Assembly: GCA_000995185.1 (NCBI GenBank)
Contig: LCET01000001.1
Coordinates: 103,028 to 167,027 of the forward strand
Length of the DNA: 64,000 nt
Direction of reading: 5' to 3'
Source: Candidatus Woesebacteria bacterium GW2011_GWC1_42_9
Lineage (GTDB): Bacteria > Patescibacteriota > Microgenomatia > UBA8517
Each line of letters starts with the position of its first letter. The first letter of the stretch is position 1. Both the position numbers and the translations under genes were made by a program. Below are positions 4,082 through 47,693 of the stretch, piece by piece. The notes below the pieces were generated by a model. It did not search any database. It had not been told where the DNA came from and saw only the letters and a list, made by a program, of their open reading frames with translations.

Positions 4082-6130
4082 ATGTATAATAAGTGGCGCA
4101 TGAGAAGAATGTGGTTGGTTGCGTTGCTACCAGTTTTTTTTTACCTTAGGCTTTTTGTGGGCTTTTTTCAACAGGATGACTGGTTTAGCTATGCGTGGTA
4201 TGTTCTGCACCGGGATTCACTCAGCTATGTATTGGCGTTTTCAGCCAGCCATTTTAATCCTTTTACCGTACTTATCAATCACTTTTTGTTTTCACTTTGG
4301 GGGATGAACTATGAGGCTTTTTTATCGGTTAGTCTCTTTCTCCATACAATGGTAATTATTTTGGTTTACCACTTATCTAAAGAGATTTTTAAACGACGTT
4401 GGCAGGCGGTAATTACAGCCTTCTTATTTGGTATCTTCGCGGCTCATTATCAAGGAACAGCTTGGGTTGTAGTTGATATTAGTACTCATTTGGCTACATT
4501 TTTTGGAATCTTATCGGTAATTTTCTTTTTGCGTCGCCGACTTTGTTTTTCTTTGGTTCTATTAATCATTTCTCTCTTTTTTAAGGAAATTACCATCGGT
4601 TTATTTCCTTTATATTTGCTTCATTTGTTTATTTCTAGAAGGAAAGGCGAATCTAGTTTTTCAAATATGATTATCGTCGTCGGACTTGGTGCGGCGTATT
4701 GTTTGTTCAGACTAGTGATAGTACTTAGTCTCAATCAAACTAATGGCTCTGTAGTGGTCCAATCGCAAAGCATCGCTATATTAGCGTATAACTTTTTCAC
4801 TATTCCTCTAAAGGTTATTTCTCAGAGTATTTTTTCTTCTGAACTGTTGTTGGTGATAGCAAATAAAGTTGGAGAGATATTGCCCAATAGTATTTCCGGC
4901 GACGTCGGGACGCCGAGTTTTGAAGTATTTGTTGTTAAAGTTGTATTAGAAGGATTTTCATTAGGCTTGTCGATTTTGATTTTAGTATTGGTGGTTTGGT
5001 TAGTACGAAGAAGTAAACGGTTAGAAATAAAAAATACTTTATTATTTGGCTTGGAGTGGTTGGTTTTAAACAGTTTTATTTTTTCTTTTGCTCCAGAGCG
5101 ATTGGGAGTGATAGCTACGATTGATTCAAGGAATCTATATTTTGTTTCTGTTGGTACGGCAATTTTCTTGACTTCGGTTGCCTCACGTTTTTATGATAAA
5201 TATCACTTAAAAATAATTTGGATTATGTTATGTATTTTGGTGATAATTAACGCCTTTTGGCTTAATAAAAATTTGACAGCGTTCAGCCGACGAGGAGAGC
5301 TTCGAAGAGAAATTCTGTCTCAAATTAAAATGAATTACCCGGATCTTCCGAACAAGGTTATTTTTTATACCGAAAGCGATCGTGCATTCTATGGCTTACC
5401 GCCAGAAGAGAGAATTCTACCATTTCAGTCGGGATTGGGTCAGACCTTGCTCGTTTGGTATTATCCAGAAGAGCGATTCCCAAATGAATTTTTTGAGGAT
5501 CGATTTTTGTGGGATATTTTGGAAGAGGGATATCGACAGTCAGATGGAAGAGTTTTTGGATATTTTAGAAACTTTGAAAAAATGGCCGAGGCGGTTAGGG
5601 CGCTGGATCTTGATTATCAAAATTCTATCATCGCTTTCAGTTATGATTCAGATGATGGTAGAATAAGGGTGACTACTCCGGAAATTATTGGTAGATTAAG
5701 TGGATATTTTTCTCAAAAAAGAGAAATTCTTTTGACCCCAGAGATGCTTACAGCTAATAGAAAACCTGATGAATTAAGATTGATTATAGATGACGAGAGG
5801 CAAAGTTATTGGAGTTCAGGGGTTCCATATAAATTTGCACTTGAGATGACGATTGATCTGGGTAGTCATAAAAAAGTGGCACAGGTAACAATAGATTCTT
5901 ATAACGATCTTGATCAATCTCAGGTAGGGTATCGGATATTAATTTCTGGAGATGGTGAAAATTGGCAAGAAGTTTTTTATGCCAAGAGGTATCCTCCTGG
6001 TAGTGACGGCCTAGTCGATTTGTACTTTAAACCACAGCCTGCTCGTTGGCTGAAAGTGGAGCAAGTAGGGAGCCATAATTTTGCCCCGTGGGTTGTAAGT
6101 GAATTGAAACTATATGAAGAAATTAACTAA
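4082..6130 (+). CDS. Polytopic membrane protein (GT-C-like) with a C-terminal discoidin/F5/8 type C (carbohydrate-binding) domain.
   Basis: About 10 hydrophobic helices in the N-terminal half. C-terminus: YWSSGVPYKFALEMTIDLGSHKKVAQVTIDSYND...GYRILISGDGENWQEVFY...ARWLKVEQVG fits the F5/8-C pattern (W.S, DLG, I.I., S.DG..W). Confidence 0.65.
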   Translation: MYNKWRMRRMWLVALLPVFFYLRLFVGFFQQDDWFSYAWYVLHRDSLSYVLAFSASHFNPFTVLINHFLFSLWGMNYEAFLSVSLFLHTMVIILVYHLSKEIFKRRWQAVITAFLFGIFAAHYQGTAWVVVDISTHLATFFGILSVIFFLRRRLCFSLVLLIISLFFKEITIGLFPLYLLHLFISRRKGESSFSNMIIVVGLGAAYCLFRLVIVLSLNQTNGSVVVQSQSIAILAYNFFTIPLKVISQSIFSSELLLVIANKVGEILPNSISGDVGTPSFEVFVVKVVLEGFSLGLSILILVLVVWLVRRSKRLEIKNTLLFGLEWLVLNSFIFSFAPERLGVIATIDSRNLYFVSVGTAIFLTSVASRFYDKYHLKIIWIMLCILVIINAFWLNKNLTAFSRRGELRREILSQIKMNYPDLPNKVIFYTESDRAFYGLPPEERILPFQSGLGQTLLVWYYPEERFPNEFFEDRFLWDILEEGYRQSDGRVFGYFRNFEKMAEAVRALDLDYQNSIIAFSYDSDDGRIRVTTPEIIGRLSGYFSQKREILLTPEMLTANRKPDELRLIIDDERQSYWSSGVPYKFALEMTIDLGSHKKVAQVTIDSYNDLDQSQVGYRILISGDGENWQEVFYAKRYPPGSDGLVDLYFKPQPARWLKVEQVGSHNFAPWVVSELKLYEEIN

Positions 6131-20576: not shown

Positions 20577-21412
20577 AAACATCAATTATTATCCCGACAT
20601 ATAATGAGGAGGGCTTCATAGAAAGCTGTTTGAAATCATTGGATAATCAATCTTTGCGTGATTTTGAAGTGATAGTTGTTGATGATGGGAGCATTGACAA
20701 GACGGAGAGCGTCTTGTCAAATTTACAATTTACAAATTTCAATTTACAAATACTTAGACAAAAACACCGAGGACCGGCTCTTGCCCGAAACTTAGGCGCC
20801 AAGAAGGCGCTGGGTGAAATACTCGTTTTTGTCGATGCTGATATGACTTTTGATAAAGATTTTGTTAAAAAATTGATCGCACCGATTATAGAAAATCAAA
20901 CAATCGGCACATTTAGCAAAGAGGAATACGTGGTTAATTGGAATAATCTTTGGGCGAGGTGTTGGAATATAAATAGTAATTTACCATCTAAAAAAAGGCT
21001 TCCTGGTAATTACCCAAATAAACAGAAAGTGTTTCGAGCGATCTTAAAAAAAGAATTTGATAGAGTAGGGGGGTTTGATAGGGGAGGGTACACCGATGAT
21101 TGGAGTTTGTCGGAGAAACTTGGCAAGATGGCCGTAAACGCGAAAGGAGCAAAGTTTTATCATAAAAATCCAGAAACTTTTGACGAGGTTTTTAGGCATT
21201 CTCGGTGGGTTGCTAAGCGCGGGTATAAACTTGGGATTTTTGGCTTTGTAGTTGCTTTAGTCAGACTTTCGCTTCCAGTGACGATCTTGGTTGGACTTTA
21301 TAAGTCCATTCGATTTAGGACTCCCCTATTTTTTATTTTCAAATTGGTTTATAACACGGGTGCAACTTTGGGAATTTTTGAGTACTTTTTGCTTAAAAAA
21401 GGAGAAAAATGA
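20573..21412 (+). CDS. GT2 family glycosyltransferase.
   Basis: SIIIPTYNEEGFIESCLKSL...FEVIVVDDGSIDKT and DAD. Contains a short heptamer repeat (see findings). Confidence 0.8.
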   Translation: MKTSIIIPTYNEEGFIESCLKSLDNQSLRDFEVIVVDDGSIDKTESVLSNLQFTNFNLQILRQKHRGPALARNLGAKKALGEILVFVDADMTFDKDFVKKLIAPIIENQTIGTFSKEEYVVNWNNLWARCWNINSNLPSKKRLPGNYPNKQKVFRAILKKEFDRVGGFDRGGYTDDWSLSEKLGKMAVNAKGAKFYHKNPETFDEVFRHSRWVAKRGYKLGIFGFVVALVRLSLPVTILVGLYKSIRFRTPLFFIFKLVYNTGATLGIFEYFLLKKGEK

Positions 21413-35852: not shown

Positions 35853-37823
35853 ATGAATGACATGCCTCAAATTAATTTTGAAGAGTCCCTAGTCCAAATT
35901 AAGCCGGATGAGAAACCTATAAAAAGATTTAGGTTTTGGAAGTTCCATCGCCCTGGAAAAAGGATTTTGATCGGTTTATCGCTTGCCTTTGTCGTTTTAT
36001 TTGTTCTTATCCTATTTCCCGCTCTTCGGGTTTATCGAAGCGGCATGGTCTTGGCAGAGAGCGCCAGGCGTGCAAAAGACTCCGTGAACAGCCAGGATAT
36101 CACGGTTGTAAGAGGCGAGCTTAATAATTTTAAGGGTGATTTGGAGAGTTTTCAGGGCGCCTACAGATGGTTTGGCTGGGTGCAATACATCCCCTGGGCG
36201 GGGAGATACTGGAAAGACGGTAATGCAGGGATAAAGGCAGGACTTCATGGATTAGCCGCGGCAGATAAAGTGATTGAAACACTGTCCCCGTATGCGGATA
36301 TTATCGGCTTTGCCGGACCAGAGAGCGATACTGCTCAAAGCGGGGAAGATACCGCAAATGACCGGATTGAGTTTTTGGTACAGTCGGTTGAGCAAATAAC
36401 TCCTCAGATTGATGGAATTTCCGCCGAAGCCCAAGCCGCCGTCGCAGAATTATCTAAAATCGATCCAAACCGGTACCCAAAGGAATTTAGGGGAATTCCC
36501 GTCCGCGAAAAACTAAAAAACGGGATAAACCTGGCGATAGTTGGCGCCGGCTTTGTTTCAAAGTCAAAACCTTTGATGGAGGCCGCCCCATATATGCTTG
36601 GGATGGACGAAGAGCGCACGTATTTGGTTCTTTTCCAAAATGACAAAGAGCTAAGACCGACTGGCGGATTTATCACCGCCTACTCGATCATGACAGTAAA
36701 AAATGGGAAAGTAAGCCAGGTGAATTCGAGCGATATATATCATTTGGATAATGCCTACCGGCCAGTCGTTCCTGCTCCGGACCCGATCATTAATTACATC
36801 AAGGGAGTTTATGCGGCTTTGGATAAGTTTCGCTTAAGAGACATGAATTGGTCGCCTGATTTCCGAGAAAGCATGGACCTGTTTATGAACGAGGCCGAGA
36901 AGGCCGGGATTGAGGATATCGATGGTGTGATCGCGGTTGATACTCATGTTGTAGTTAATCTTCTTAAGGCGATCGGGCAGATTGGTGTGCCAGGATTTGG
37001 CAATTTTAGCGCTGAAAATGATGAGCGCTGTAATTGCCCGCAGGTAGTTTATGAGCTGGAAAGCTTTGCAGACGTGGAGGGGCCGGTTGTTTGGAGTGAA
37101 AATGAGCCGGAGAAGATCGTCTTTGCTCCCCCAAATTATGATAATCGCAAAAAAATTGTCGGTCCTTTGATGAATTCACTTTTGGGAAATGCCTTGGGAC
37201 AACCAAAGGAAAAGCTACCGGATCTTTTTGAAGCCGCGTGGGATTCGATCAATGAAAAGCATGTCCTGATTTACATGTTTGATGAAAATGCCCAAAAGGG
37301 AGTGGAGAGCTTTGAAATCGCCGGTAGAATTAAAGATATTGAGGGCGACTATCTACATATAAATGATGCTAATTTAGGGGGCAGGAAGTCAAACATGTAT
37401 GTCACCCAAGAAGTATCCCAGGACGTAGATATTGCCCGAGACGGCACAGTTACAAAAACACTAAGCATTACCTATAAAAACCCTCAGGACTACGATGGCT
37501 GGCTTAATTCGGTCCTCCCTAATTGGACGAGAATTTATGTGCCGAGAGGGAGTGAACTCGTTTCCGTTGACGGATTTGACGATGAAGGGGAGACCTATGA
37601 GGAGCTTGGCAAGACTGTCTTTTCCGGAGGATTTGAGCTTCGTCCTCAAGGCATAAAGCAGATAATCATTGTCTATAAATTGCCTTTTAAAGTAAGCGAT
37701 GATTACTGGGTTTACTTGCAAAAACAGCCCGGGACGGATATGCCGCTCTATGTCGTTAATGTTGGTGGGAAAACTGAAGAGCTATTTCTTAAAACTGACC
37801 AACACCTGAAGTTTTCGATCTAA
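35853..37823 (+). CDS. N-terminally TM-anchored large extracytoplasmic protein, probably DUF4012 family.
   Basis: A single N-terminal TM helix. LRPTGGFITAYS motif. Positioned next to the priming sugar transferase, as in other polysaccharide loci. Confidence 0.5.
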   Translation: MNDMPQINFEESLVQIKPDEKPIKRFRFWKFHRPGKRILIGLSLAFVVLFVLILFPALRVYRSGMVLAESARRAKDSVNSQDITVVRGELNNFKGDLESFQGAYRWFGWVQYIPWAGRYWKDGNAGIKAGLHGLAAADKVIETLSPYADIIGFAGPESDTAQSGEDTANDRIEFLVQSVEQITPQIDGISAEAQAAVAELSKIDPNRYPKEFRGIPVREKLKNGINLAIVGAGFVSKSKPLMEAAPYMLGMDEERTYLVLFQNDKELRPTGGFITAYSIMTVKNGKVSQVNSSDIYHLDNAYRPVVPAPDPIINYIKGVYAALDKFRLRDMNWSPDFRESMDLFMNEAEKAGIEDIDGVIAVDTHVVVNLLKAIGQIGVPGFGNFSAENDERCNCPQVVYELESFADVEGPVVWSENEPEKIVFAPPNYDNRKKIVGPLMNSLLGNALGQPKEKLPDLFEAAWDSINEKHVLIYMFDENAQKGVESFEIAGRIKDIEGDYLHINDANLGGRKSNMYVTQEVSQDVDIARDGTVTKTLSITYKNPQDYDGWLNSVLPNWTRIYVPRGSELVSVDGFDDEGETYEELGKTVFSGGFELRPQGIKQIIIVYKLPFKVSDDYWVYLQKQPGTDMPLYVVNVGGKTEELFLKTDQHLKFSI

Positions 37824-38620
37824 TGATCTGGGAGGAGATTTTTGCAAGCGGGGACACTTCCTACTCCGAGTCAGGTAAGACCCAAAATCAGCTTTTTGAG
37901 CTAGTTAAGCTTCGTTTCTTAATTACGATTTTTCCAAAAAAACATTCTCTAATTCTTGAGGTTGGCTGCGGCGCGGCCCGGACTTCGCTTTATTTTGCCA
38001 AAAGGGGACATGAGACTACTTTACTTGATCAAAGTGATGAAGTTTTAAAAATCGCCAAGGAAAATTATAAAAAAGAAAAAGCAAAAGGAAAATTTGTCGT
38101 CGGGGATGCTGAAAAATTACCGTTTGATAGTAACCAATTTGATGTTGTGATGAGCTTTGGATTGTTGGAGCATTTTAGGAAGCCTGAGATAGTGATCACT
38201 GAAATGGTAAGGGTGCTTAAACCCGGTGGATTGTTTTTTGCGGACATTGTCCCCAAACGATTTTCGGTGCAATCGATTGGCAATGTTATCAACTTTATTT
38301 TTTCAATAATTTACTGGACTATAAAATTAAAGCCACTTGTGGGAATTAAAAGAGGGATGCGGAATTTCAGGCCGCTTTATTATGAAAATGCCCTTTCCTG
38401 GATGAAATACAAAAAAATAATGGAGGAGGCAGGAGCAAAGGGCATAAAAGTACGCGGCAACCGTCCCTGGCCGAGACTTACTCTGCCGATGGCAGCAGAT
38501 AGACTTTATGCGGGAGTATTAAAGCCGACGATGCTTTTTTGGAGAAAATTTGACACATGGGATAATTTTTTCCCTCGCTTCTGGGGAGCCGGCTGGTGGT
38601 TCTGGGGAATAAAGCGATAA
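37823..38620 (+). CDS. Class I SAM-dependent methyltransferase (Methyltransf_11).
   Basis: ILEVGCGAARTSLYFAKRGHETTLLDQS...FDVVMSFGLLEHF. The start overlaps the upstream stop (TAATG). Confidence 0.75.
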   Translation: MIWEEIFASGDTSYSESGKTQNQLFELVKLRFLITIFPKKHSLILEVGCGAARTSLYFAKRGHETTLLDQSDEVLKIAKENYKKEKAKGKFVVGDAEKLPFDSNQFDVVMSFGLLEHFRKPEIVITEMVRVLKPGGLFFADIVPKRFSVQSIGNVINFIFSIIYWTIKLKPLVGIKRGMRNFRPLYYENALSWMKYKKIMEEAGAKGIKVRGNRPWPRLTLPMAADRLYAGVLKPTMLFWRKFDTWDNFFPRFWGAGWWFWGIKR

Positions 38621-38744: not shown

Positions 38745-39287
38745 GTGGGAAGGACATATGTTTCAGATGGGGTTGTGTTGGCTTCGCGTGATTACAGTGA
38801 GGCGGATAAAATATTGGTAGTTCTCTCGAAAGATTTTGGCAGAGTGTCGCTTATTGCCAAAGGCGTTAAAAAGCTCAAAAGCCGTAAGCGCGGGCACGTC
38901 GAAATCTTTAATCATATAAAGTTCCAAGCTGCTCGGGGGAAATCTTTGGATATTATTACCGAGGCAGAAATTATCAATGCTTTTTCAAGGGTCAGGAAAA
39001 ACTTAGTAAAGACTTCTGTCGCCTATTATTTTGCGGAGGTGATCGGGCGTACTACCCGCGACCACGAAAGAAATGAAGTGCTGTACGGACACCTATTAGA
39101 TAGCCTCACGAAGCTCCAAAAAAGCGAGAATTTGAAAGAATTAAGGCGTGATTTTGCGGTAAGGGCTTTGGAGATCCTAGGCTTCTGGCCAAAAAACAAA
39201 AAAATCGCCGATCCGGACAGATTTATCGAGGAAATCCTCGAGCGTGAGCTAGCGAGCATTAGAGTGGGCAAAAGGCTTCAAGGGTAG
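38745..39287 (+). CDS. recO: DNA repair protein RecO (short form).
   Basis: GTG start. N-terminal OB-fold region DGVVLASRDYSEADKILVVLSKDFGRVSLIAKGVKKLKS matches RecO_N. Confidence 0.65.
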   Translation: MGRTYVSDGVVLASRDYSEADKILVVLSKDFGRVSLIAKGVKKLKSRKRGHVEIFNHIKFQAARGKSLDIITEAEIINAFSRVRKNLVKTSVAYYFAEVIGRTTRDHERNEVLYGHLLDSLTKLQKSENLKELRRDFAVRALEILGFWPKNKKIADPDRFIEEILERELASIRVGKRLQG

Positions 39288-39311: not shown

Positions 39312-40409
39312 ATGAATACTAAATCTTTAAATACAAACTTACATAGAGCAAATAAAGCAAAGAAAGATGAGTTTTATACTCAGCTTATTGATATTGAAAA
39401 AGAACTGAAGCACTACAAAGACCAGTTTCGAGGCAAGGTGGTTTATTGCAATTGTGATGATCCATTTGAAAGTAATTTTTTCAAATATTTTGCCGCTAAT
39501 TTCAACGCCCTAAAACTTAAAAAGTTAATCACCACCAGTTATACAAAGTCGCCAGTTGCCGGAGGACAGTTGCCACTCTTTGAAGTCAAGGGCTTAAAAC
39601 CGAAAGGCAAAGAGCCGTTTATGATTGTACTCAATGAAGTGACAGATACCGATGCAGACGGCGCGGTGGGGCTTACTGATGTGAAGTGGCTCTTGAAAAA
39701 TGATGCCAATATCGCTACCTCACTCAAGGGTAACGGAGATTTTCGCAGCGAGGAGTGCATCAAACTTCTAAAAGAAGCAGATATTGTGGTAACCAACCCG
39801 CCATTTTCACTCTTTCGCGAATATGTGGCGCAGTTAGTCGAGTATAAGAAGAAATTTATAATTCTTGGCGACCAAAACGCAATTACATACAAAGAATTTT
39901 TTAAACTTATAAAAGAAAACAAGCTATGGCTTGGTTATGATAACGGTGGCACAAAATGGTTTCAAGTCCCAATGGATTACGATATACCAACAGAGTCAAG
40001 AAAGAAAATTGAGAATGGAGTGCAGTATTTTAGTATGGGGCGGATTATGTGGTTTACAAATTTAGACACCACAAAAAGACACGAGAAGCTGACTTTATAT
40101 AAAAAATATAGTCCGAAAGAATATCCAAAATATGACAATCATGATGCAATTGAAGTCTCTAGGGTTTTAGAAATTCCAATGGACTACAAGGGATTCATGG
40201 GTGTGCCAATTACATTTGTTGATAAATATAATCCTGATCAATTTGAGATCATTGGATTGCTTGCTGATAAGCGGGAAAAATCAGATGCACTTATACAAGG
40301 TATCCCTACTTATCTTGATGAACAGCATAAAAAATATGTAGGTGCTATTGTTAACGGAAAAGCAACTTATGCACGGATTATTATTAAAAATAAGAAAGTA
40401 AAAAAATAA
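39312..40409 (+). CDS. N6-adenine DNA methyltransferase, EcoRI-methylase-like family.
   Basis: KDEFYTQLIDIEKEL..Y...FRGKVVYCNCDDPFESNFFKYF and motif IV VVTNPPFSLFREY (the NPPF catalytic tetrapeptide). Confidence 0.65.
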   Translation: MNTKSLNTNLHRANKAKKDEFYTQLIDIEKELKHYKDQFRGKVVYCNCDDPFESNFFKYFAANFNALKLKKLITTSYTKSPVAGGQLPLFEVKGLKPKGKEPFMIVLNEVTDTDADGAVGLTDVKWLLKNDANIATSLKGNGDFRSEECIKLLKEADIVVTNPPFSLFREYVAQLVEYKKKFIILGDQNAITYKEFFKLIKENKLWLGYDNGGTKWFQVPMDYDIPTESRKKIENGVQYFSMGRIMWFTNLDTTKRHEKLTLYKKYSPKEYPKYDNHDAIEVSRVLEIPMDYKGFMGVPITFVDKYNPDQFEIIGLLADKREKSDALIQGIPTYLDEQHKKYVGAIVNGKATYARIIIKNKKVKK

Positions 40410-40410
40410 T

Positions 40411-41517
40411 ATGAAAATTGATCTAAACAAAATACCAATTCACGAAGTGATAGTCGGCTACAGAGATAGCGCCGAGGAGGGCGTGGTGGCTTATGGTGGC
40501 AAACTTGATATTCGTCCAAAATATCAGCGTGAGTTTGTATACAAGGAAAAGCAACGCAACGCAGTGATAGAGACTATAAATAACAATTTTCCTCTTAACG
40601 TGATGTACTGGATGATTAGAGAAGATGGCGGCTATGAAGTACTGGACGGCCAACAGCGCACCATCAGCATTGGGCAGTATGTTACGGGTGATTTTTCGCT
40701 GAACGACCGCTTTTTTCATAATCTGACCAAAGAGGAGCAGGATAAAATTTTGGATTATGAGCTTATGATTTACTTCTGCGAGGGAACGGACAAAGAACGG
40801 TTGGATTGGTTTAGAATTATCAACATCGCCGGAGAAAAATTGACCGATCAAGAAATACGCAACGCAGTTTATACCGGCCCGTGGCTTTCTGACGCGAAAA
40901 TCAAATTTAGTAAATCAAATTGTGCGGCGTATCTCTTGGCAAACGACGGCGGACAATTAGTTAGTGGTTCGCCAATTCGCCAAGAGTATTTGGAAACAGT
41001 ACTTTCGTGGATTAACGATGGCAAGATAGAAGATTATATGGCCAAACATCAGCATGATGAAAACGCCGATGAGCTATGGCAGTATTTTCAAGATGTGATA
41101 GTCTGGGTACGAATAATTTTTACGAATTATCGCCGAGAGATGAGCAATGTGCCGTGGGGAGTTTTGTATAACCAATTCAAAGATAAAAAATTTGATTCAA
41201 AAAAACTGGAAAAAGAAATAACCGAGTTGATGCAAGACGAAGATGTGACCAAAAAGTCCGGTATTTACGAATATGTTTTAACTAGAAATGAAAAATTTTT
41301 AAACATCCGCGCTTTCACCGACAAAATGAAACGAGAAGCGTATGAGAGACAAAAAGGCGTTTGTCCGCACTGCAAAGGCGAGAACAAGAAAAAGAAATGG
41401 GAAATTAAGGAAATGGAAGCCGACCACATCAAGCCATGGCATGAAGGCGGAAAAACGACAGTAGAGAATTGCCAGATGTTGTGCCAAGACGATAATAGAA
41501 AAAAATCAGGAAAATAA
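40411..41517 (+). CDS. DUF262 (ParB/Srx-like, GmrS-type) domain protein with a C-terminal HNH nuclease.
   Basis: VLDGQQRTISIGQY (the DGQQR motif of DUF262). C-terminus CPHCKG...ADHIKPWHEGGKTTVENCQMLCQDDNRKK (HNH with CxxC...C..C Zn ligands). A 1-nt gap to the upstream MTase suggests translational coupling. Confidence 0.7.
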   Translation: MKIDLNKIPIHEVIVGYRDSAEEGVVAYGGKLDIRPKYQREFVYKEKQRNAVIETINNNFPLNVMYWMIREDGGYEVLDGQQRTISIGQYVTGDFSLNDRFFHNLTKEEQDKILDYELMIYFCEGTDKERLDWFRIINIAGEKLTDQEIRNAVYTGPWLSDAKIKFSKSNCAAYLLANDGGQLVSGSPIRQEYLETVLSWINDGKIEDYMAKHQHDENADELWQYFQDVIVWVRIIFTNYRREMSNVPWGVLYNQFKDKKFDSKKLEKEITELMQDEDVTKKSGIYEYVLTRNEKFLNIRAFTDKMKREAYERQKGVCPHCKGENKKKKWEIKEMEADHIKPWHEGGKTTVENCQMLCQDDNRKKSGK

Positions 41518-41551
41518 AATGATAGGTGCGCCGGCTTCACTGGTATGAGAT

Positions 41552-43018
41552 TTGCTGAGAATAAATAGTATGAAAATTAGTCAAATCTACAAATTAAATA
41601 AAACTCAGCATGAATTAGATTTTGTTGACATAGATCCCTCAAAAGACAAAGCAGTTTTTCTTGACCCCTTCTTTATTTCTACTAGACCTCAACCGTGGTG
41701 TATAGATGTAAGTAGAACAATAAAAAGTTTTTTTCAACACGCGATTGACCTTATTAAATCAGATGAGGTTGATAAAGCTCGTGCTCTTTTTGTTCATTTA
41801 AACGAACCGAATGAAATATGTTTAGGTTTATCGAGATCCAAACCTCAAGGTAGGGGTGCCGGCAATGATGATTCAAGACGCATATATGAAAGTATTTTGG
41901 AGAGTAAGGCAGTTCAAACTGGGTTAGTAGAAGATTTGGAAGATACGGCTATTTTTATTGATCGGATAGCTAGAGATAAGGTATCTGATATGACAACTAA
42001 CATAATTAGGAAACATCTTGTTGGTTACACTAAATCACAGTGCGAATTGTGGAATATTCCTTTGACCAGCGATGTACCATCTGGATTTTTTTGGGATCCA
42101 GCAAATAAAAGATGGGAAATTGTGCACACCGACAGATTAGTCGTAAGAAACAAACCCTTATTGCTAGTTCCAAAAATATCAGTTTCTTTCCATAAAGAAT
42201 ATATTGATCAAAAATATTATCAGCACTTCGCCTTAAATTATTTACAGGGTGAGCATTTAGCAAAAGATAGCAGTTTGGTGCGTGAAAGAACATTAAAGGA
42301 TGGTTCAAAACATAGATATGTAACAAAAAAAGATATAAAAGAGAAGGAAGCTCCTTTTTCTAAAGAATTTTTGCGTGAGTTTACAAAAAGTCATCCTGAA
42401 GTTTTTAAAAATTTCAGAAGTAGTAAAGCTCAATCCGTTCAACCAATCGGAAATAAAGATCTGGAAGATATTGATGTTGGCGCTTTAGTCGATTACTTGA
42501 TTAACTTACTTAATTCCTTGACTGCGGGTGGGGACAACGCAAGCGCATATCATAAATTGATCATCGGAGTACTAGAATTTATTTTCTACCCATCATTAAA
42601 TAATCCAGTCAAAGAGAAAGAAATAAACGACGGCAGAAAGCGAATTGACATAACTTTCGACAATTCAGCAAATGATGGATTTTTTTACACTCTCCACAAT
42701 CTCCATCAAATTACTTCAAGATATATTTTTGTTGAGTGCAAAAATTATTCGGAAGATCCAAAAAATCCAGAAATTGATCAGTTGGCCGGTAGATTTTCGG
42801 TTAATACAAGTAAATTCGGCTTTTTGGTTTGCAGATTGATAAGTGATAAAAATTTATTTCTGAAAAGATGCCAAGATATGTGGAAACAGAAAAATGAGTT
42901 GATTATCCCGTTGACCGATCTGGAAATCATCGCTATTTTAAAAAATATAAAATCAGGAGTGATACGAACAGAAGAACAATTACTCAATGATTTAAGAAGG
43001 AAGATAATTTTGTCGTAG
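41552..43018 (+). CDS. Putative restriction endonuclease. It has a C-terminal Mrr-cat-like PD-(D/E)xK domain and a large uncharacterised N-terminal domain.
   Basis: C-terminal GRKRIDITFDN...(27 aa)...IFVECKNY matches the Mrr_cat pattern G.IDh...(E/Q)xKxY. Confidence 0.5.
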   Translation: MLRINSMKISQIYKLNKTQHELDFVDIDPSKDKAVFLDPFFISTRPQPWCIDVSRTIKSFFQHAIDLIKSDEVDKARALFVHLNEPNEICLGLSRSKPQGRGAGNDDSRRIYESILESKAVQTGLVEDLEDTAIFIDRIARDKVSDMTTNIIRKHLVGYTKSQCELWNIPLTSDVPSGFFWDPANKRWEIVHTDRLVVRNKPLLLVPKISVSFHKEYIDQKYYQHFALNYLQGEHLAKDSSLVRERTLKDGSKHRYVTKKDIKEKEAPFSKEFLREFTKSHPEVFKNFRSSKAQSVQPIGNKDLEDIDVGALVDYLINLLNSLTAGGDNASAYHKLIIGVLEFIFYPSLNNPVKEKEINDGRKRIDITFDNSANDGFFYTLHNLHQITSRYIFVECKNYSEDPKNPEIDQLAGRFSVNTSKFGFLVCRLISDKNLFLKRCQDMWKQKNELIIPLTDLEIIAILKNIKSGVIRTEEQLLNDLRRKIILS

Positions 43019-43175
43019 GCGGAGACGGAAAAGCGAGGACAGGACACAAGCATGGTACAAAATTCAGAATGAAGCAAAATTGTCTCCCCATATTTTATAA
43101 AAAAACTGCTGTTATATCATGAGACTTGACCCCTAAGAAATTTAGGATTATGTTTAGGATGAGATACATTTTAAG

Positions 43176-43718
43176 ATGCCTTTTTCTACAGAAATTATTG
43201 GTCTTTTGCAGTATTTAGGTGTTAGTGCGGATAAAATAGCCCCATTTTTAATTTTTGGTTTTCTTTTGAATCTCTCCTTCTCAAAGAGACTCGGAATATT
43301 TTCAAAAGAGATCAACAAAATTGCCAACGCAATAGTTGAAATTCAAACTGTTTTAAGAAACAATCTTAAAGTTACGCTGCAGCAAAATATCAATCAATAT
43401 GGAATATCTGGAAGTCCAATAGTTCTTAAGAGTGAATTTCGGTCATTTATTACTAAGCCAAAACTTGACCAGCAGGTAGATGAAAAAATTGACGAACTTA
43501 TAGAATGGTTGAAAAAGCAAAACCCAAAAACTGGAATTGATGCCCAAAATAAAATTTCAGAGCTGGTGATATCACCAAAGATCAACGAATATTTAGACCT
43601 CACAAAATACAAACAATACCTATATACAAAAGGTAAAACGTCAAGAGATGCTTATGGGATTTTGGCCGTCTACCTCTTCGAGATATTGATTCCTATATTG
43701 TTTCCCTCAGGCAAATAA
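43176..43718 (+). CDS. Hypothetical protein (180 aa).
   Basis: ORF only. Hydrophobic N-terminal and C-terminal segments. No motif recognised. Confidence 0.4.
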   Translation: MPFSTEIIGLLQYLGVSADKIAPFLIFGFLLNLSFSKRLGIFSKEINKIANAIVEIQTVLRNNLKVTLQQNINQYGISGSPIVLKSEFRSFITKPKLDQQVDEKIDELIEWLKKQNPKTGIDAQNKISELVISPKINEYLDLTKYKQYLYTKGKTSRDAYGILAVYLFEILIPILFPSGK

Positions 43719-43742
43719 CAAATAATATCAAACTGCTCAAAT

Positions 43743-43832
43743 TTGACCCGTTTTGACACATTAATTTAGGGTTGACAACATAATCATGTTGTCCATAGTA
43801 GTTAGCAAGCAGTCTATTTGAGTGCTTGCTAA
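43743..43832 (+). promoter_or_regulatory. Promoter/operator region. It has three TTGAC(A/C) boxes, a palindrome GACAACAT-aatc-ATGTTGTC overlapping the TTGACA/CATAAT elements, and a second perfect 10-bp inverted repeat TTAGCAAGCA-(11 nt)-TGCTTGCTAA ending 1 nt before the SD.
   Basis: Read directly: TTGACC 43743, TTGACA 43753, TTGACA 43772. First inverted repeat (IR) 43773-43792. Second IR 43802-43832. SD GGAGGTGA at 43834. Confidence 0.5.
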
Positions 43833-43847
43833 TTGGAGGTGATTAAA

Positions 43848-44102
43848 ATGGTAGATTTTAATAATTTAAAAATAGAGCCACATTTTAAGCTAAATTTTGG
43901 TAAGTCCGGGAAAAACGGAAATGGTGGAGATGGGGGATCAATATTTATTTTCACTGAAAAATTAGCAGGGGATGGGAAATTCCTTGCTCATGGAGGTAGG
44001 GGAAAACATGGAGGAAAAGGAGGGAATATAAAAATTATTGCAAAAAATAATGATTTCAAGGGCGAAGTTTCAGTAAAAGGAGGTGATTCCTATGGAAAGT
44101 AA
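43848..44102 (+). CDS. Small glycine/lysine-rich protein (84 aa).
   Basis: ATG 43848 with SD GGAGGTGA 6 nt upstream. The in-frame TTG at 43833 is the ORF-track start. Sequence GKSGKNGNGGDGGSIFIF...GGRGKHGGKGGNIKII...KGGDSYGK. Confidence 0.5.
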   Translation: MVDFNNLKIEPHFKLNFGKSGKNGNGGDGGSIFIFTEKLAGDGKFLAHGGRGKHGGKGGNIKIIAKNNDFKGEVSVKGGDSYGK

Positions 44103-44382
44103 GCAACATAAACAAATCGCAAACAAAATTGCCAAAATTAAGGGCTCCGAATACCATTCGGATAAAGGGATAGATATTCGTACCAGAACTCAAGCAATAG
44201 AAGTAGAGGTTGATTCAAAAGCCTTTGGACACGCAAAACAACAATTGGCTGGATCGACACGAGCACCTTATATTGCCGTGCCTAACGAACTCGTCAAAGA
44301 TGCTCTAGTGTCAACACAAAATACTAGATTTGGAGTTATGAATGAGAGAGCAAAAATTTATAAATCAGGTCGGCGAAGATAG
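44092..44382 (+). CDS. Small protein (96 aa), possibly a minimal PD-(D/E)xK (YraN-like) fold. It is translationally coupled to the upstream gene.
   Basis: ATG 44092 with an identical SD GGAGGTGA 8 nt upstream, lying inside the 3' end of the previous gene. KGIDIRTRTQAIEVEVDSKA resembles a D...ExDxK core. The ORF-track start is GTG 44083. Confidence 0.45.
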   Translation: MESKQHKQIANKIAKIKGSEYHSDKGIDIRTRTQAIEVEVDSKAFGHAKQQLAGSTRAPYIAVPNELVKDALVSTQNTRFGVMNERAKIYKSGRRR

Positions 44383-44403
44383 AAAATATATATAGATTTG
44401 GAT

Positions 44404-44434
44404 TTTGTGGCCCCGCAAAAAATCATTTTTTTTG
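44404..44434 (+). terminator. Probable intrinsic terminator after the two-gene module.
   Basis: TTTTGTG-gccc-CGCAAAA hairpin (one G.U pair), followed by a T8 run. Confidence 0.4.
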
Positions 44435-44458
44435 ACCAAACTAAAAGAAAGGATATGA

Positions 44459-45754
44459 TTGGGAGGAATGGTTAACTTTTTTGAAAAACAGTTTGATAAT
44501 TTAGCAAAAAAGATTCAACTGCGTTGGAAAAATCTTATTTTAGGGTTAAAATCTTATTTCAAAAAATTGATTTTTCCTCTGTATCTTTTCCCGATTAAGC
44601 TTGTTACTTATACCGCTTATTACTTGGTCAAGTTTTTAATCAAGTTTATTTTTGCTTTCATCAGCCTTATTTTTGAAACAATTATTTTTCCCTTCAAAAG
44701 TCTTAAAAACTTTTTAAAGTCAATTTTTATTCTTGGTATTTTTATATACCTTTTAGCCTCTGTTTTTGTAATTGCTGATTATTTAACAAACCAGTACGGC
44801 TATATCGGCAAATTCCTTTGTTCTTTTGGAGTGAGAGATAAAATGGTAAATTCTGTTGTTCGTGTCGTCGGCGGATATTCTGAAGGCACAGGGTTTTTCA
44901 TAAGCCCCGACCAAGTGATTACCAACTTCCATGTTATTGCTGATGAGCCAAGCCCTAAAATTATTTTTCCCGATGGAAACTTTGTAACTCCGGTAAAAAT
45001 TCTTGGCAATAAAGATGTTGACTTGGCAGTCTTGTTTACAGAAGCAAAGTATCCGGATCTGGTTTTGCCTTTGCCGGATAGCATAGGCTTTAAGGAGGAC
45101 GAACCTCTTATTGCTACCGGCTACGCTTTGGGAACTGACTTAACTGGTAAGGCAACGAGCCTTAGGGGAAGGTTTATTGATTTTAGGAAATCCAAGCGAA
45201 TGCCCATTGGCTACATCCAAACTGACATCAGTTTGGTCAAGGGCATGAGCGGCGGCCCGCTGGTCGATCAATGCGGGAGTGTAGTTGGGATAAATACCAT
45301 TAGTCTTGCCGGATTATCCTTGTTTATCAACGCAGACTGGGCAAAAACTATGGTGCCGGATTTTACCGACCAGAATATTACTAAAATCGAGGTTGACCCT
45401 TCTCTCTCTCCGGAGGAAGCCGTGAGAGCTTTTTATACCTATCTTAAAGCCCGCCGGATGGAAGACGGCTTTAACTTATTGAGCGAAGAATATCTTAAAA
45501 AGACAAACTTTGAGGAATGGACCAACCGCTTCACTGATATTTTGGATGTTGATGTTATCAAATCCGAGAAATTTGAAAATACCAACGATATTGCTTTTGT
45601 AAAATTCTCAACTAAAAATTGGGTGGACGGGGAAGCAGAAGTACATTTTTACGAGGGTACTTGGCAAACGGTCAAAGAAGACGGGGTGTACAAAATGTTC
45701 AAAAGCAAAATTGTGGAAGTTGAAAACCCAGATTGGGATTGGTTCTATGAATAA
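44459..45754 (+). CDS. Membrane-anchored trypsin-like serine protease (S1/Trypsin_2) with an uncharacterised C-terminal domain.
   Basis: 3-4 N-terminal TM helices. Catalytic triad contexts TNFHVIAD (His), DVDLAVLF (Asp) and KGMSGGPLVD (Ser). Confidence 0.7.
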   Translation: MGGMVNFFEKQFDNLAKKIQLRWKNLILGLKSYFKKLIFPLYLFPIKLVTYTAYYLVKFLIKFIFAFISLIFETIIFPFKSLKNFLKSIFILGIFIYLLASVFVIADYLTNQYGYIGKFLCSFGVRDKMVNSVVRVVGGYSEGTGFFISPDQVITNFHVIADEPSPKIIFPDGNFVTPVKILGNKDVDLAVLFTEAKYPDLVLPLPDSIGFKEDEPLIATGYALGTDLTGKATSLRGRFIDFRKSKRMPIGYIQTDISLVKGMSGGPLVDQCGSVVGINTISLAGLSLFINADWAKTMVPDFTDQNITKIEVDPSLSPEEAVRAFYTYLKARRMEDGFNLLSEEYLKKTNFEEWTNRFTDILDVDVIKSEKFENTNDIAFVKFSTKNWVDGEAEVHFYEGTWQTVKEDGVYKMFKSKIVEVENPDWDWFYE

Positions 45755-46397
45755 GCTCTCGCCATCAGACTTCGCCTACCTCTATGAGGAGTGTAAGCTT
45801 TGCTACTACCTCAAAGTCAAGCACAAGATTTCCCAGCCTAGCATGCCCATGCCTGGCGTCTTTAGTGCGATAAATACCCGCCTCCAAACTCCGCTTGTCG
45901 GCAAAAATTTGCAAGTCATATCCAAAAGACTCCCCGAGGGTGAGGTTATAAAGCAAGAAGGATGGGTAGAGTCTAAAACTGTCCCTGGGACAAATGTTTA
46001 CCTCAAGGGTAAGTATGATTTGTTAGTTAAAAACATGGACGAGACTTATACCCTGGTCGACTTAAAGATCACCCAGCCGGATGAAGGCAAGATTGAAAAG
46101 TACCAGACCCAATTGTCGGCTTATAAATTTGCCTTGGAAAATCCCAAAACTGGCAAGCCGACCCAGATCGTGAGGACCGGATTACTTCTTTTTTATCCCG
46201 ACACAGTGACTTTTAAAGCGGGGAATGCGATATTTAAATTCCCGCCGACTTGGATGGAAGTGCCGATCGACGAAAGAGTTTTCTTTGGGTTTATGAAGGA
46301 AGTTAACGAGCTTTTAAATGGACCCACTCCAAAAGAAAGCAAAACTTGCAAATGGTGCCAGTACCGGCACATTGGGGATAAGTTAGCTCACTCGTGA
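45747..46397 (+). CDS. Cas4/RecB-like PD-(D/E)xK nuclease with four Cys that could form an Fe-S cluster (standalone, no CRISPR nearby).
   Basis: N-terminal ECKLCYY. GKYDLLV (motif I Asp). LVDLKI (DxK). QTQLSAYKFAL (QxxxY). C-terminal TCKWCQY. The ORF-track start is 45711; the Met at 45747 overlaps the protease stop by 8 nt. Confidence 0.6.
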   Translation: MNKLSPSDFAYLYEECKLCYYLKVKHKISQPSMPMPGVFSAINTRLQTPLVGKNLQVISKRLPEGEVIKQEGWVESKTVPGTNVYLKGKYDLLVKNMDETYTLVDLKITQPDEGKIEKYQTQLSAYKFALENPKTGKPTQIVRTGLLLFYPDTVTFKAGNAIFKFPPTWMEVPIDERVFFGFMKEVNELLNGPTPKESKTCKWCQYRHIGDKLAHS

Positions 46398-46430: not shown

Positions 46431-47693
46431 TTGATGGAGAAAATTGTTTCTCTTGCCAAAAGACGGGGGTTTATTTATCCGGGGAGTGAGATCTATGGAG
46501 GGCTGACTGGCTTCTGGGACTATGGACCTCTTGGAGTGGAATTGAAAAACAATATCAAGCGCGAGTGGTGGAGGACAATGGTTTATGGGCGCGAAGACGT
46601 TGTCGGGCTTGACGCCGCAATTATCATGAATCCTAAGGTGTGGGAAGCAAGCGGCCACACCGAGGCCTTTACCGACCCTCTGGTTGAGTGTAAGACTTGC
46701 CATAAGCGCTTCCGTGCCGATAGGCACGAGATTATTGCCAAGCACGAAAAAAAGCACAAAAAAGCCCCCCAGTGGACTGAGCCCAGGACATTTAATCTAT
46801 TGACGGAAGTGTATTTAGGGACGACTGAGCCAAAGCAAAAAGCTTATCTTCGGGGTGAAATCACTCAGGGCGTATTTGTAAATTTCGGGAATGTCGTTAG
46901 CTCTAATCGGGTCAAGGTCCCCTTTGGGATTGCCCAAATAGGGAAGGCTTTCCGGAACGAAATTACCCCAGGGAACCTCACTTTTCGCTCGCGTGAATTT
47001 GAGCAGATGGAGCTTGAGTATTTTGTCGCGCCGGATGAAAAAGAAGCCCAGAAGACTTTTGATTATTGGAAAGAGGAAAGACTAAATTGGTATGTTGGTC
47101 TTGGGATGAATAAAGAGAAGCTGAGATTTAGAGCCCATGCAAAAAATGAGATGGCGCACTATGCGCGCGCGGCAGAGGACATTGAATATAAAGCTCCTTT
47201 TGGCTGGAGTGAGTTTGAAGGGATCCACCACCGGGGGGACTGGGACTTAAGCCGTCATAAGATTACTTATAAAGATGACTCGGGCAAAGAATTCACTCCT
47301 TGGGTGATAGAAACTTCTGGAGGAGTTGACCGGTCTACGTTGTTTTTCTTAATTGATGCTTATTGTGAGGAAGATGGAAGAGTTGTTTTAAAACTAAATA
47401 AGAAGCTTGCGCCTTTTAAAGCGGCCGTGTTTCCTCTTTTGGCCAATAAGCCGAAGCTATTGGAAGTGGCCAAAAAGATATTTACTGATCTGAAGAAGGA
47501 AATGCCGGTGGTGTGGGATGATCGCGGGAACATCGGGAAGCGCTACTTTGCCCAGGATGAGATCGGTACACCCGCATGCATTACAATTGATTTTCAAACT
47601 CTTGAAGACGATGCCGTGACGGTGCGGGACCGCGACACGGCAAAACAAGAAAGGGTTTCAGTTGACAAGCTCCAGGACTATCTGAAAGAATAA
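46431..47693 (+). CDS. glyQS: Glycine--tRNA ligase, alpha2 (GlyQS) type.
   Basis: N-terminal KRRGFIYPGSEIYGGLTGFWDYGPLGVELKNNIKREWW is the GlyRS class II signature. A C-terminal anticodon-binding region is also present. Confidence 0.85.
   Translation: MMEKIVSLAKRRGFIYPGSEIYGGLTGFWDYGPLGVELKNNIKREWWRTMVYGREDVVGLDAAIIMNPKVWEASGHTEAFTDPLVECKTCHKRFRADRHEIIAKHEKKHKKAPQWTEPRTFNLLTEVYLGTTEPKQKAYLRGEITQGVFVNFGNVVSSNRVKVPFGIAQIGKAFRNEITPGNLTFRSREFEQMELEYFVAPDEKEAQKTFDYWKEERLNWYVGLGMNKEKLRFRAHAKNEMAHYARAAEDIEYKAPFGWSEFEGIHHRGDWDLSRHKITYKDDSGKEFTPWVIETSGGVDRSTLFFLIDAYCEEDGRVVLKLNKKLAPFKAAVFPLLANKPKLLEVAKKIFTDLKKEMPVVWDDRGNIGKRYFAQDEIGTPACITIDFQTLEDDAVTVRDRDTAKQERVSVDKLQDYLKE

Follow-up and report, generated by a model that had tools for sequence, protein, structure and literature searches.

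A modest, probable defence islet between recO and glyS in a Candidatus Woesebacteria genome

The stretch of DNA analysed here, called the window, is 64,000 nucleotides (nt) long (Candidatus Woesebacteria bacterium GW2011_GWC1_42_9, contig LCET01000001.1, positions 103,028 to 167,027 of the forward strand) and holds eight tightly packed genes, designated A to H, between the housekeeping genes recO and glyS, in a region (38.7-47.7 kb) where all notable open reading frames (ORFs) lie on the + strand. With a probability of roughly 70%, the interval is a composite of horizontally acquired cargo, namely genes A to F (39312-44382, approximately 5.1 kb), and two native genes, G and H. The locus is a real but modest defence islet, in which an apparent type II restriction-modification (R-M) pair (A and B) is followed by a protein of the DUF8370 family (C), an orphan protein (D) and two small overlapping genes (E and F), and its novelty lies in DUF8370 and E/F. 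An initial annotation, made from the letters alone, had taken all of 39312-46397 for one accessory island with possible undescribed immunity modules. The eight co-oriented genes all exist, the housekeeping nature of both flanks stands (Table 1), and the domain calls were largely correct in profile searches of Pfam, NCBIfam, PADLOC and PHROGs, but the island is limited to A to F and does not reach 7.1 kb. Gene content, folds and motifs, the empty sites in relatives and the contexts of homologues are direct observations, whereas all biochemical activities and any anti-phage role proposed below are predictions.

Relatives were anchored on the glycine-tRNA ligase (GlyRS) in genomes and metagenomes, and all proteins of the window were mapped onto them by tblastn; the closest GlyRS relative among the matches listed is 77% identical (locus L102). 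The backbone order common to the relatives is DUF4012 protein, recO, glyS, a protein of 242 amino acids (aa), mraZ and rsmH, with recO orthologues of 47-54% identity directly upstream of glyS. The two genes abut in L102, L001 (GlyRS 72% identical), L110 (60%), L111 (57%) and L112 (56%); in a WWE3 locus (L036, GlyRS 49% identical) recO is approximately 0.66 kb upstream of glyS, and in several loci of Bacillota and Actinomycetota it is just upstream. This is the synteny comparison that the initial annotation had proposed, and it bears out an insertion for A to F only. Elsewhere the slot between recO and glyS is occupied by a DUF2130 gene and a 94-aa ORF (L103, 8190-9543), a cupin gene (L107, 9375-9773), a gene for a 592-aa DUF11 surface protein (L104, 7875-9653), a set comprising ABC_tran, ABC-3, an RNase-H-like exonuclease, a PDDEXK_1 gene, LytR and TspO (L106, 3645-9960, and L109), or an SNase-like gene, a 182-aa ORF, a G orthologue, an 88-aa ORF, an H orthologue, ABC_tran and ABC-3 (L108, 2926-8317). 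At least six different gene sets fill the slot among relatives, and it behaves as a variable integration or rearrangement hotspot flanked by core genes in this Woesebacteria-like clade of the candidate phyla radiation (CPR).

Genes A to F were found solely in contigs of the same species (L088-L092), one of which, a 298-kb contig from a groundwater metagenome (L088), carries the same locus with proteins 98-100% identical to those named Candidatus Woesebacteria bacterium GW2011_GWB1_43_14; D, E and F match none of the unannotated ORFs in the slots of the relatives. G has orthologues of 69% identity in L002 (GlyRS 73%) and 67% in L108 (GlyRS 70%), neither of which carries A to F, and an H orthologue (47%) lies downstream of G in L108, a divergence of G and H close to that of GlyRS and recO (50%) in those genomes. 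It is this recurrence of G and H with housekeeping-like divergence, together with the confinement of A to F to their own species, that points to a hotspot with A to F as its cargo. Base composition divides the interval in a similar way: the G+C content at third codon positions (GC3) is 0.49 in recO and 0.50 in glyS, 0.41 in G and 0.55 in H, and 0.34, 0.45, 0.28, 0.31, 0.22 and 0.28 in A, B, C, D, E and F, respectively. Because their orthologues occur in relatives that lack A to F and their GC3 is backbone-like, G and H appear to be native genes of this chromosomal neighbourhood rather than defence cargo. C, for its part, shares 90% identity with P0001 and 82% with a gene of a type III operon, more than GlyRS shares with the best orthologue listed (77%). 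P0001, the D homologue P0207 (78%) and the F homologues P0122/P0123 (83%) may stem from a single sister lineage. The locus illustrates cleanly how a hotspot between core genes (recO and glyS) can serve to swap small defence cargo in CPR bacteria, the genomes of which are tiny and which are thought to rely on R-M more than on CRISPR.

Table 1. Features of the recO-glyS interval (coordinates in the window).
Feature	Coordinates	Strand	Details
recO, left backbone flank	38745..39287	+	RecO_N + RecO_C; TIGR00613 3e-32
A, EcoRI-family N6-adenine DNA methyltransferase	39312..40409	+	365 aa; PF13651 1.8e-143
B, DUF262 + HNH endonuclease	40411..41517	+	368 aa; GmrSD_N 5.6e-17, HNH 3.2e-11
C, DUF8370 (PF28123) protein	41570..43018	+	482 aa from the ATG used by public gene calls
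D, orphan protein	43176..43718	+	180 aa; 18 homologues
Sigma-70-like promoter of E-F, putative operator	43772..43799	+	promoter scan 10 of 12
10-bp-arm palindrome before the E ribosome-binding site	43802..43832	+	second putative operator or 5' untranslated-region hairpin
E, glycine-rich repeat protein	43848..44102	+	84 aa
F, minimal PD-(D/E)XK-fold protein	44092..44382	+	96 aa; start overlaps E end by 11 nt
G, trypsin-like protease (HtrA-type, no PDZ)	44459..45754	+	431 aa; Trypsin_2 6.7e-21
H, RecB/Cas4-like PD-(D/E)XK nuclease	45747..46397	+	216 aa; PDDEXK_1 6.6e-12
Glycine-tRNA ligase (dimeric type), right backbone flank	46431..47693	+	NF003211 4.4e-169; synteny anchor

The DUF8370 protein C consists of an N-terminal domain (approximately residues 1-300) and a FokI/Mrr-like PD-(D/E)XK cleavage domain (approximately residues 315-470). 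It has no match in the copy of Pfam searched, which was without the PF28123 model, and was assigned through its relatives: the near-identical gene (99.8%) in L088 is annotated PF28123:DUF8370, and more than 2772 homologues came out of a large protein search, among which the best 120 are 50-90% identical over 94-100% coverage and all carry PF28123. The sources of these 120 include Patescibacteria, Acidobacteriota, Desulfotalea, Paenibacillus and Bacillus, and a PHROGs family (phrog_27295, 6e-98) is matched as well. The catalytic domain is of the Mrr/FokI PD-(D/E)XK type, with D360, E389 and K391 invariant among the 78 invariant positions of the family alignment (A2). An AlphaFold2 model built from a 30-sequence alignment (pLDDT 86.5, pTM 0.87) gave only weak Foldseek matches in the PDB, to FokI and N.BspD6I, with the N-terminal domain unmatched, and PDB sequence searches with C and with its profile returned noise, no chain being matched. 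C keeps the D..ExK motif of the FokI, N.BspD6I and Mrr cleavage domains (of type IIS, type ISP and type IV enzymes), whereas its N-terminal 300 residues match no solved recognition domain and gave no Pfam, PDB-sequence or confident fold match. On small plasmids of Bacillus, Acinetobacter and Staphylococcus (plasmid matches H16-H19 and H25-H42) this N-terminal domain is found by itself, and the nuclease domain is fused to the C-terminus of a Dcm methyltransferase on a B. cereus plasmid (NZ_CP023246; L187, 3831-5519), which indicates that DUF8370 is a two-module protein with recombining parts.

The contexts of DUF8370 genes elsewhere point to an association with R-M systems. In L087 the gene order is hsdR-DUF8370-hsdM-hsdS, and in L184 the gene (82% identical to C) lies between mod and res of a type III system, overlapping mod and ending 2 nt before res. 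On a B. mycoides plasmid, DUF8370 is found between a Gabija-like TOPRIM+UvrD pair and an integrase+McrBC, and on IMG/VR contigs it is next to AbiU2 (HEPN), SIR2_2, Bro-N or a serine recombinase; six IMG/VR loci were found with a profile of C, none in a scan with the single sequence, and INPHARED has no match to C. For genes that sit inside type I R-M operons, PrrC is given as the archetype (bioRxiv 10.1101/2024.01.29.577857). The DUF8370 gene is likewise placed between R-M subunit genes on the same strand (L087 and L184), but its product has a DNA-nuclease-type FokI/Mrr fold, not that of an anticodon nuclease or ABC ATPase, and any functional coupling to the R-M system would be hypothetical.

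PADLOC relates C to a predicted system from the same line of work. Its PDC models stem from a 'guilt-by-embedding' study (Payne et al., bioRxiv 10.1101/2024.01.29.577857) that put forward as candidates the genes lying inside BREX, DISARM and type I R-M systems; PDC-M36, a three-gene cassette (FAM_01399>>FAM_00303>>FAM_00303), is among its predictions, the study having tested only seven other systems (bioRxiv 10.1101/2024.01.29.577857). Residues 7-229 of C match positions 6-228 of the 457 in one PDC-M36A model (2.4e-37), and residues 257-460 match positions 99-300 of the 330 in a second (1.2e-13), both matches being partial. C shares with PDC-M36 these two model matches and the embedding of its family in R-M operons, but PDC-M36 has three genes, whereas the islet has a single gene that matches each model in part; D, E and F have no PADLOC match, and the cassette is not present. 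Membership of C in PDC-M36 was rejected, the cassette being absent, and C appears, from these alignments, to be a relative of a PDC-M36 component and not a member of that system. A literature search found no paper that mentions DUF8370 or PDC-M36.

DUF8370 is probably a stand-alone DNA nuclease with a defence function that rides with R-M systems. C may serve as a second-line nuclease, the N-terminal domain of which would sense a target or trigger: either modified DNA, as in type IV systems, or the loss of a partner R-M system, by a logic like that of PrrC. Once triggered, the C-terminal domain would cut DNA. Together with F, the family is a lead for experiments, with at least 50% identity from Patescibacteria to Bacillus among the best 120 homologues, more than 2772 members, and copies embedded in both type I and type III R-M operons.

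After C come three small orphan genes. D has no match in Pfam, NCBIfam (above cutoff), PADLOC or PHROGs, and the source names of its homologues are only Woesebacteria, Patescibacteria and 'bacterium'; it is a CPR-only orphan, with hydrophobic N- and C-terminal segments (read by eye) and a homologue that stands alone beside rpsO in L182. Genes E and F have a promoter of their own, with a TTGACA -35 element, a 16-nt spacer and a CATAGT -10 element, and a GGAGG site upstream of the ATG of E. Between the -35 and -10 elements is a perfect palindrome with 8-bp arms, GACAACAT-N4-ATGTTGTC (43774-43793), and a second perfect palindrome, with 10-bp arms, TTAGCAAGCA-N11-TGCTTGCTAA, stops 3 nt short of the GGAGG; the whole 64-kb window contains only four different palindromes with 10-bp arms. 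As RNA, the second palindrome folds into a hairpin of -21.1 kcal/mol (z -5.3). No Rfam family was matched in the palindrome region or anywhere in 38-48 kb, and no common operator motif was found upstream of the F homologues. The promoter of one F homologue (L097, approximately 4955-5000) has a TGTTGTA-N7-TACAACA motif that shares ACAAC/GTTGT half-sites with GACAACAT-N4-ATGTTGTC and adjoins a divergent pair of helix-turn-helix (HTH) and Peptidase_M78 genes; the resemblance could reflect a shared operator or chance.

E follows the pattern GGxGGxIxI...FxGxxSxxGG and has 71 representative homologues at E<=0.001, of which approximately ten are small, stand-alone and full-length (54-58% identity). 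In HNH proteins (P0244, P0252, P0255) this module makes up the C-terminal domain; in P0245 it precedes an oligonucleotide/oligosaccharide-binding-fold (tRNA_anti-like) domain, and proteins of 1000-3000 aa contain many copies of it. It has no match in Pfam, NCBIfam or PADLOC, no signature of a DNA-binding antitoxin fold (HTH, ribbon-helix-helix or AbrB), and only a weak match in PHROGs (phrog_13336, E 9.5e-4, a family of unknown function); this glycine-rich module, which the Pfam copy searched does not include, is promiscuous.

The 85 homologues of F are 94-115 aa long, and their source names are all those of CPR lineages; F is absent from IMG/VR, INPHARED and PLSDB, and a PDB sequence search with its profile returned only noise. 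Its structure model (pLDDT 94.7) has an alpha-beta-beta-beta-alpha-beta core, a minimal PD-(D/E)XK fold, and 18 residues are invariant over the 85 homologues, including H6, D28, E37, E39 and Q51. The core fold of the model matches that of SPO1766 (3dnx), a minimal nuclease-fold protein. The active-site triad of BamHI is D94/E111/E113, and F has an invariant D28..E37-x-E39 like it; F differs from BamHI and BglII in its length of 96 aa, in having no recognisable DNA-recognition elements, and in belonging to a CPR-restricted, unannotated family. Homologues of F follow a D12-class methyltransferase (L093), lie beside a type ISP enzyme and the HTH/Peptidase_M78 pair (L097), are downstream of a type III R-M system (L100), or stand alone (L095).

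The initial annotation had described E and F as a palindrome-controlled two-gene module; the palindromes and the overlap of the two genes are real, but the pairing is not conserved, F homologues elsewhere being without E. E and F are small genes that move independently of each other and whose combination is specific to this lineage. E may act as a partner or scaffold for F as a small nuclease, with expression repressed through the palindromes, and such a nuclease-plus-adaptor reading is plausible. If it is true, a glycine-rich, beta-solenoid-like adaptor works with a BamHI-like protein of 96 aa, and F, if active, could be among the smallest restriction-fold nucleases. The suggestion of undescribed modules has held for C, D, E and F to the extent that no curated defence model fully explains any of them; it has failed for A+B, an apparently ordinary type II R-M system, and needs qualifying for C, which is already in Pfam as DUF8370 and is related to PDC-M36A. 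The strongest version of the idea, in which DUF8370 would be a widespread single-gene immune nuclease coupled to the R-M system (type I, II or III) that surrounds it, either as a backup set off by inhibition of that system or as a modification-dependent partner, and E-F a new CPR-specific small-nuclease module, is speculative and rather doubtful.

An unlikely alternative to a defence role is that C to F are selfish or addiction cargo (E-F, for example, being toxin-antitoxin-like) or decaying hitch-hikers without benefit to the host. The small E and F genes, overlapping by 11 nt behind a palindromic promoter, do have the layout of a type II toxin-antitoxin operon, but E shows no signature of a DNA-binding antitoxin fold, and F is found elsewhere without E; on these grounds, the lack of conserved pairing and the lack of an antitoxin fold, a canonical toxin-antitoxin pair was rejected. 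D and E have few homologues, and some copies of DUF8370 and D are alone among housekeeping genes. Decay is at odds with the strong purifying selection on DUF8370, visible in its 50% or higher identity across phyla and its many invariant positions, and with the preservation in F of all 18 invariant residues, acidic triad included, over its homologues; and the repeated embedding of DUF8370 in R-M operons and defence islands argues for immunity.

The pair A+B, by comparison, is readily placed. A carries an NPPF motif and matches the EcoRI_methylase model at all of its positions (1-345 of 345), besides PADLOC MTase_II (8.7e-132); B combines a ParB-like GmrSD_N/DUF262 domain (DGQQR) with an HNH domain (PF01844), and its residues 1-368 match positions 1-372 of PADLOC REase_II PDLC03418 (2.8e-137). 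Since both matches are full-length, the earlier view that the layout is not that of a textbook R-M system was wrong for these two genes. They are separated by 1 nt. A tblastn search of plasmids with B found 44 near-full-length homologues (52-60% identity) in Aeromonas, Chryseobacterium, Macrococcoides, Mammaliicoccus, Sulfitobacter, Variovorax, Gordonia and others, and in at least 8 of the 12 best matches the matched stretch also overlaps an EcoRI-family methyltransferase gene. Gene maps of Aeromonas caviae p1 and M. sciuri pH8C110P-cfr display a two-gene module, methyltransferase first, with abutting or overlapping genes, and A-like and B-like genes abut in the same order on plasmids of Proteobacteria, Bacillota and Actinomycetota. 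Plasmid pairs such as those of NZ_CP068231 and NZ_CP065796 have the same families, order and abutting genes; A+B differs from them in its chromosomal location in a CPR bacterium and in the DUF8370 gene and small orphan genes that come after it. To judge from this conserved linkage, A+B is an ordinary, widely mobile type II R-M pair with cognate members. As family membership and conserved pairing suggest, A would methylate adenine in its site on host DNA, and B would cut incoming DNA that is unmethylated.

A different reading of B would make it a type IV, modification-dependent nuclease like GmrSD or BrxU, with A as an independent or orphan methyltransferase, and this is improbable. GmrSD, BrxU and SspE have an N-terminal DUF262 domain and a C-terminal His-Me finger domain (PMC12707154), a layout that B shares (DGQQR, then a His-Me finger nuclease), and B has weaker PADLOC matches to NsnA and PD-T4-2_A. 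The C-terminal domain of those type IV or PT-dependent enzymes is, however, DUF1524, whereas that of B is a classical HNH domain, accompanied by a methyltransferase partner of its own; the full-length match to REase_II far exceeds that to NsnA (6.9e-26); and the retention of A-like and B-like genes in abutting order on plasmids of three phyla is the signature of a cognate pair. Given this pairing and the classical HNH domain, B is predicted more likely to be blocked by modification than to depend on it. A PDB sequence search with B returned only noise, and a literature search for a characterised type II enzyme with DUF262 and HNH domains found only reviews of type IV GmrSD enzymes.

Two observations on the window concern modification more loosely. 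GGCC is under-represented across the window (103 observed, 170 expected, ratio 0.61, z -5.2), which could be the mark of a HaeIII-like R-M system, unrelated to A+B, to which the DNA was exposed. A same-species assembly (L089) is identical to the window from approximately position 40215 onward, but its first 135 nt or so, where the contig ends inside gene A (window 40090-40214), are only approximately 70% identical, with the reading frame kept. Members of the population may therefore differ by a recombination breakpoint in the methyltransferase gene or carry a mosaic of its alleles.

Several observations weigh against acquired defence cargo as the reading of A to F. With regard to acquisition, the insertion has no integrase, transposase or tRNA to mark it and no direct repeats at its flanks; the relatives are distant (GlyRS at most 77% identical among the matches listed, which include no empty site from the same species or a very close one), which blurs the timing and number of insertion events; and the GC3 of B exceeds that of A and of C to F, so that there could have been more than one acquisition. 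With regard to defence, a palindrome-depletion scan, in which GAATTC, CAATTG and AATT are not depleted, gave no recognition site for A+B; DUF8370 is also found alone among non-defence genes in two CPR genomes (L081-L086 and L188); and the islet encodes no regulator able to bind the palindromes. F is without the catalytic lysine, so that nuclease activity is not assured, and its homologues in L093, L095, L097 and L099-L101 have no E-like neighbour, E being there only in the same-species loci.

G and H were part of the original island as a transmembrane-anchored protease overlapping a Cas4-like nuclease, which might have constituted a further undescribed immunity module within a single 7.1-kb defence island of A to H. 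The domains and the overlap are as described: in G, hydrophobic segments at the N-terminus (read by eye) are followed by a Trypsin_2 domain and then by a C-terminal extension, and G overlaps H by 8 nt if it starts at the ATG of the public gene calls (44468) or by 44 nt if it starts at a TTG; an exact-sequence look-up of G found no record. H has the invariant residues C16, D91, D105-x-K107, Q122, Y126, C201 and C204 (D..DxK and QxxxY). Membership in the island does not hold, since orthologues of both genes occur in relatives without A to F. A PDDEXK_1 gene is next to a trypsin-like protease gene in three genomes (L002 449-2472, L108 4400-6630 and window 44459-46397), with differing orders, and a functional link between G-type and H-type genes is possible. 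The PDDEXK_1 gene that precedes the G orthologue in L002 is a different one, 22% identical to H with the same cysteine layout; the pair is followed by ABC transporter genes, 7.5 kb from glyS, and the gene downstream of G in L002 encodes an ABC ATPase unrelated to H.

What speaks for a single island is that all eight genes are co-oriented and tightly packed, that a PDDEXK_1 gene adjoins the G orthologue in L002 and L108 too, and that G weakly matches PADLOC RT-Protease_XI (2e-12) and LmuA (4e-11) and H weakly matches Cas4 models; these matches cover only the generic trypsin or RecB domain. H shares with the Cas4/AddB-type RecB nucleases D..DxK, QxxxY and the N- and C-terminal cysteines, but it is below the cutoff of the cas4 model (TIGR00372, score 27.7, cutoff 65), is without CRISPR/cas linkage, and is conserved as a backbone gene in relatives. 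There is no CRISPR-like array in the window and no cas gene nearby, and H was rejected as a true Cas4 for these reasons, its neighbours being the protease and glyS. The G and H orthologues are beside ABC-3 transporter genes, at housekeeping-like divergence, and the GC3 of both genes is backbone-like. The single large island is thus largely refuted by synteny, and counting G and H as defence genes in annotation would over-call the islet. The weakest alternative, that A to F were ancestral at the site and have been deleted in the relatives, draws on the distance of those relatives and the variability of the slot in many of them, but is scarcely credible given that recO is next to glyS from 77% down to 49% GlyRS identity (WWE3, Bacillota and Actinomycetota included), that the GC3 of A to F differs from that of the backbone, and that the homologues nearest to these genes either lie in unrelated replicons or surpass in similarity every housekeeping orthologue found.

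Two other regions of the window drew attention. A gene for a 265-aa S-adenosylmethionine-dependent methyltransferase (37823-38620) lies between the DUF4012 gene and recO and has no counterpart in any relative, DUF4012 abutting recO in L001, L102 and L107; it seems to be another insertion specific to the lineage, immediately to the left of the islet. Further upstream, a perfect 10-bp-arm palindrome, TTGACAAGAC... (20694-20720), is beside a 14-nt tandem repeat (20718-20751), and this region (20694-20751) may be regulatory for the upstream gene cluster.

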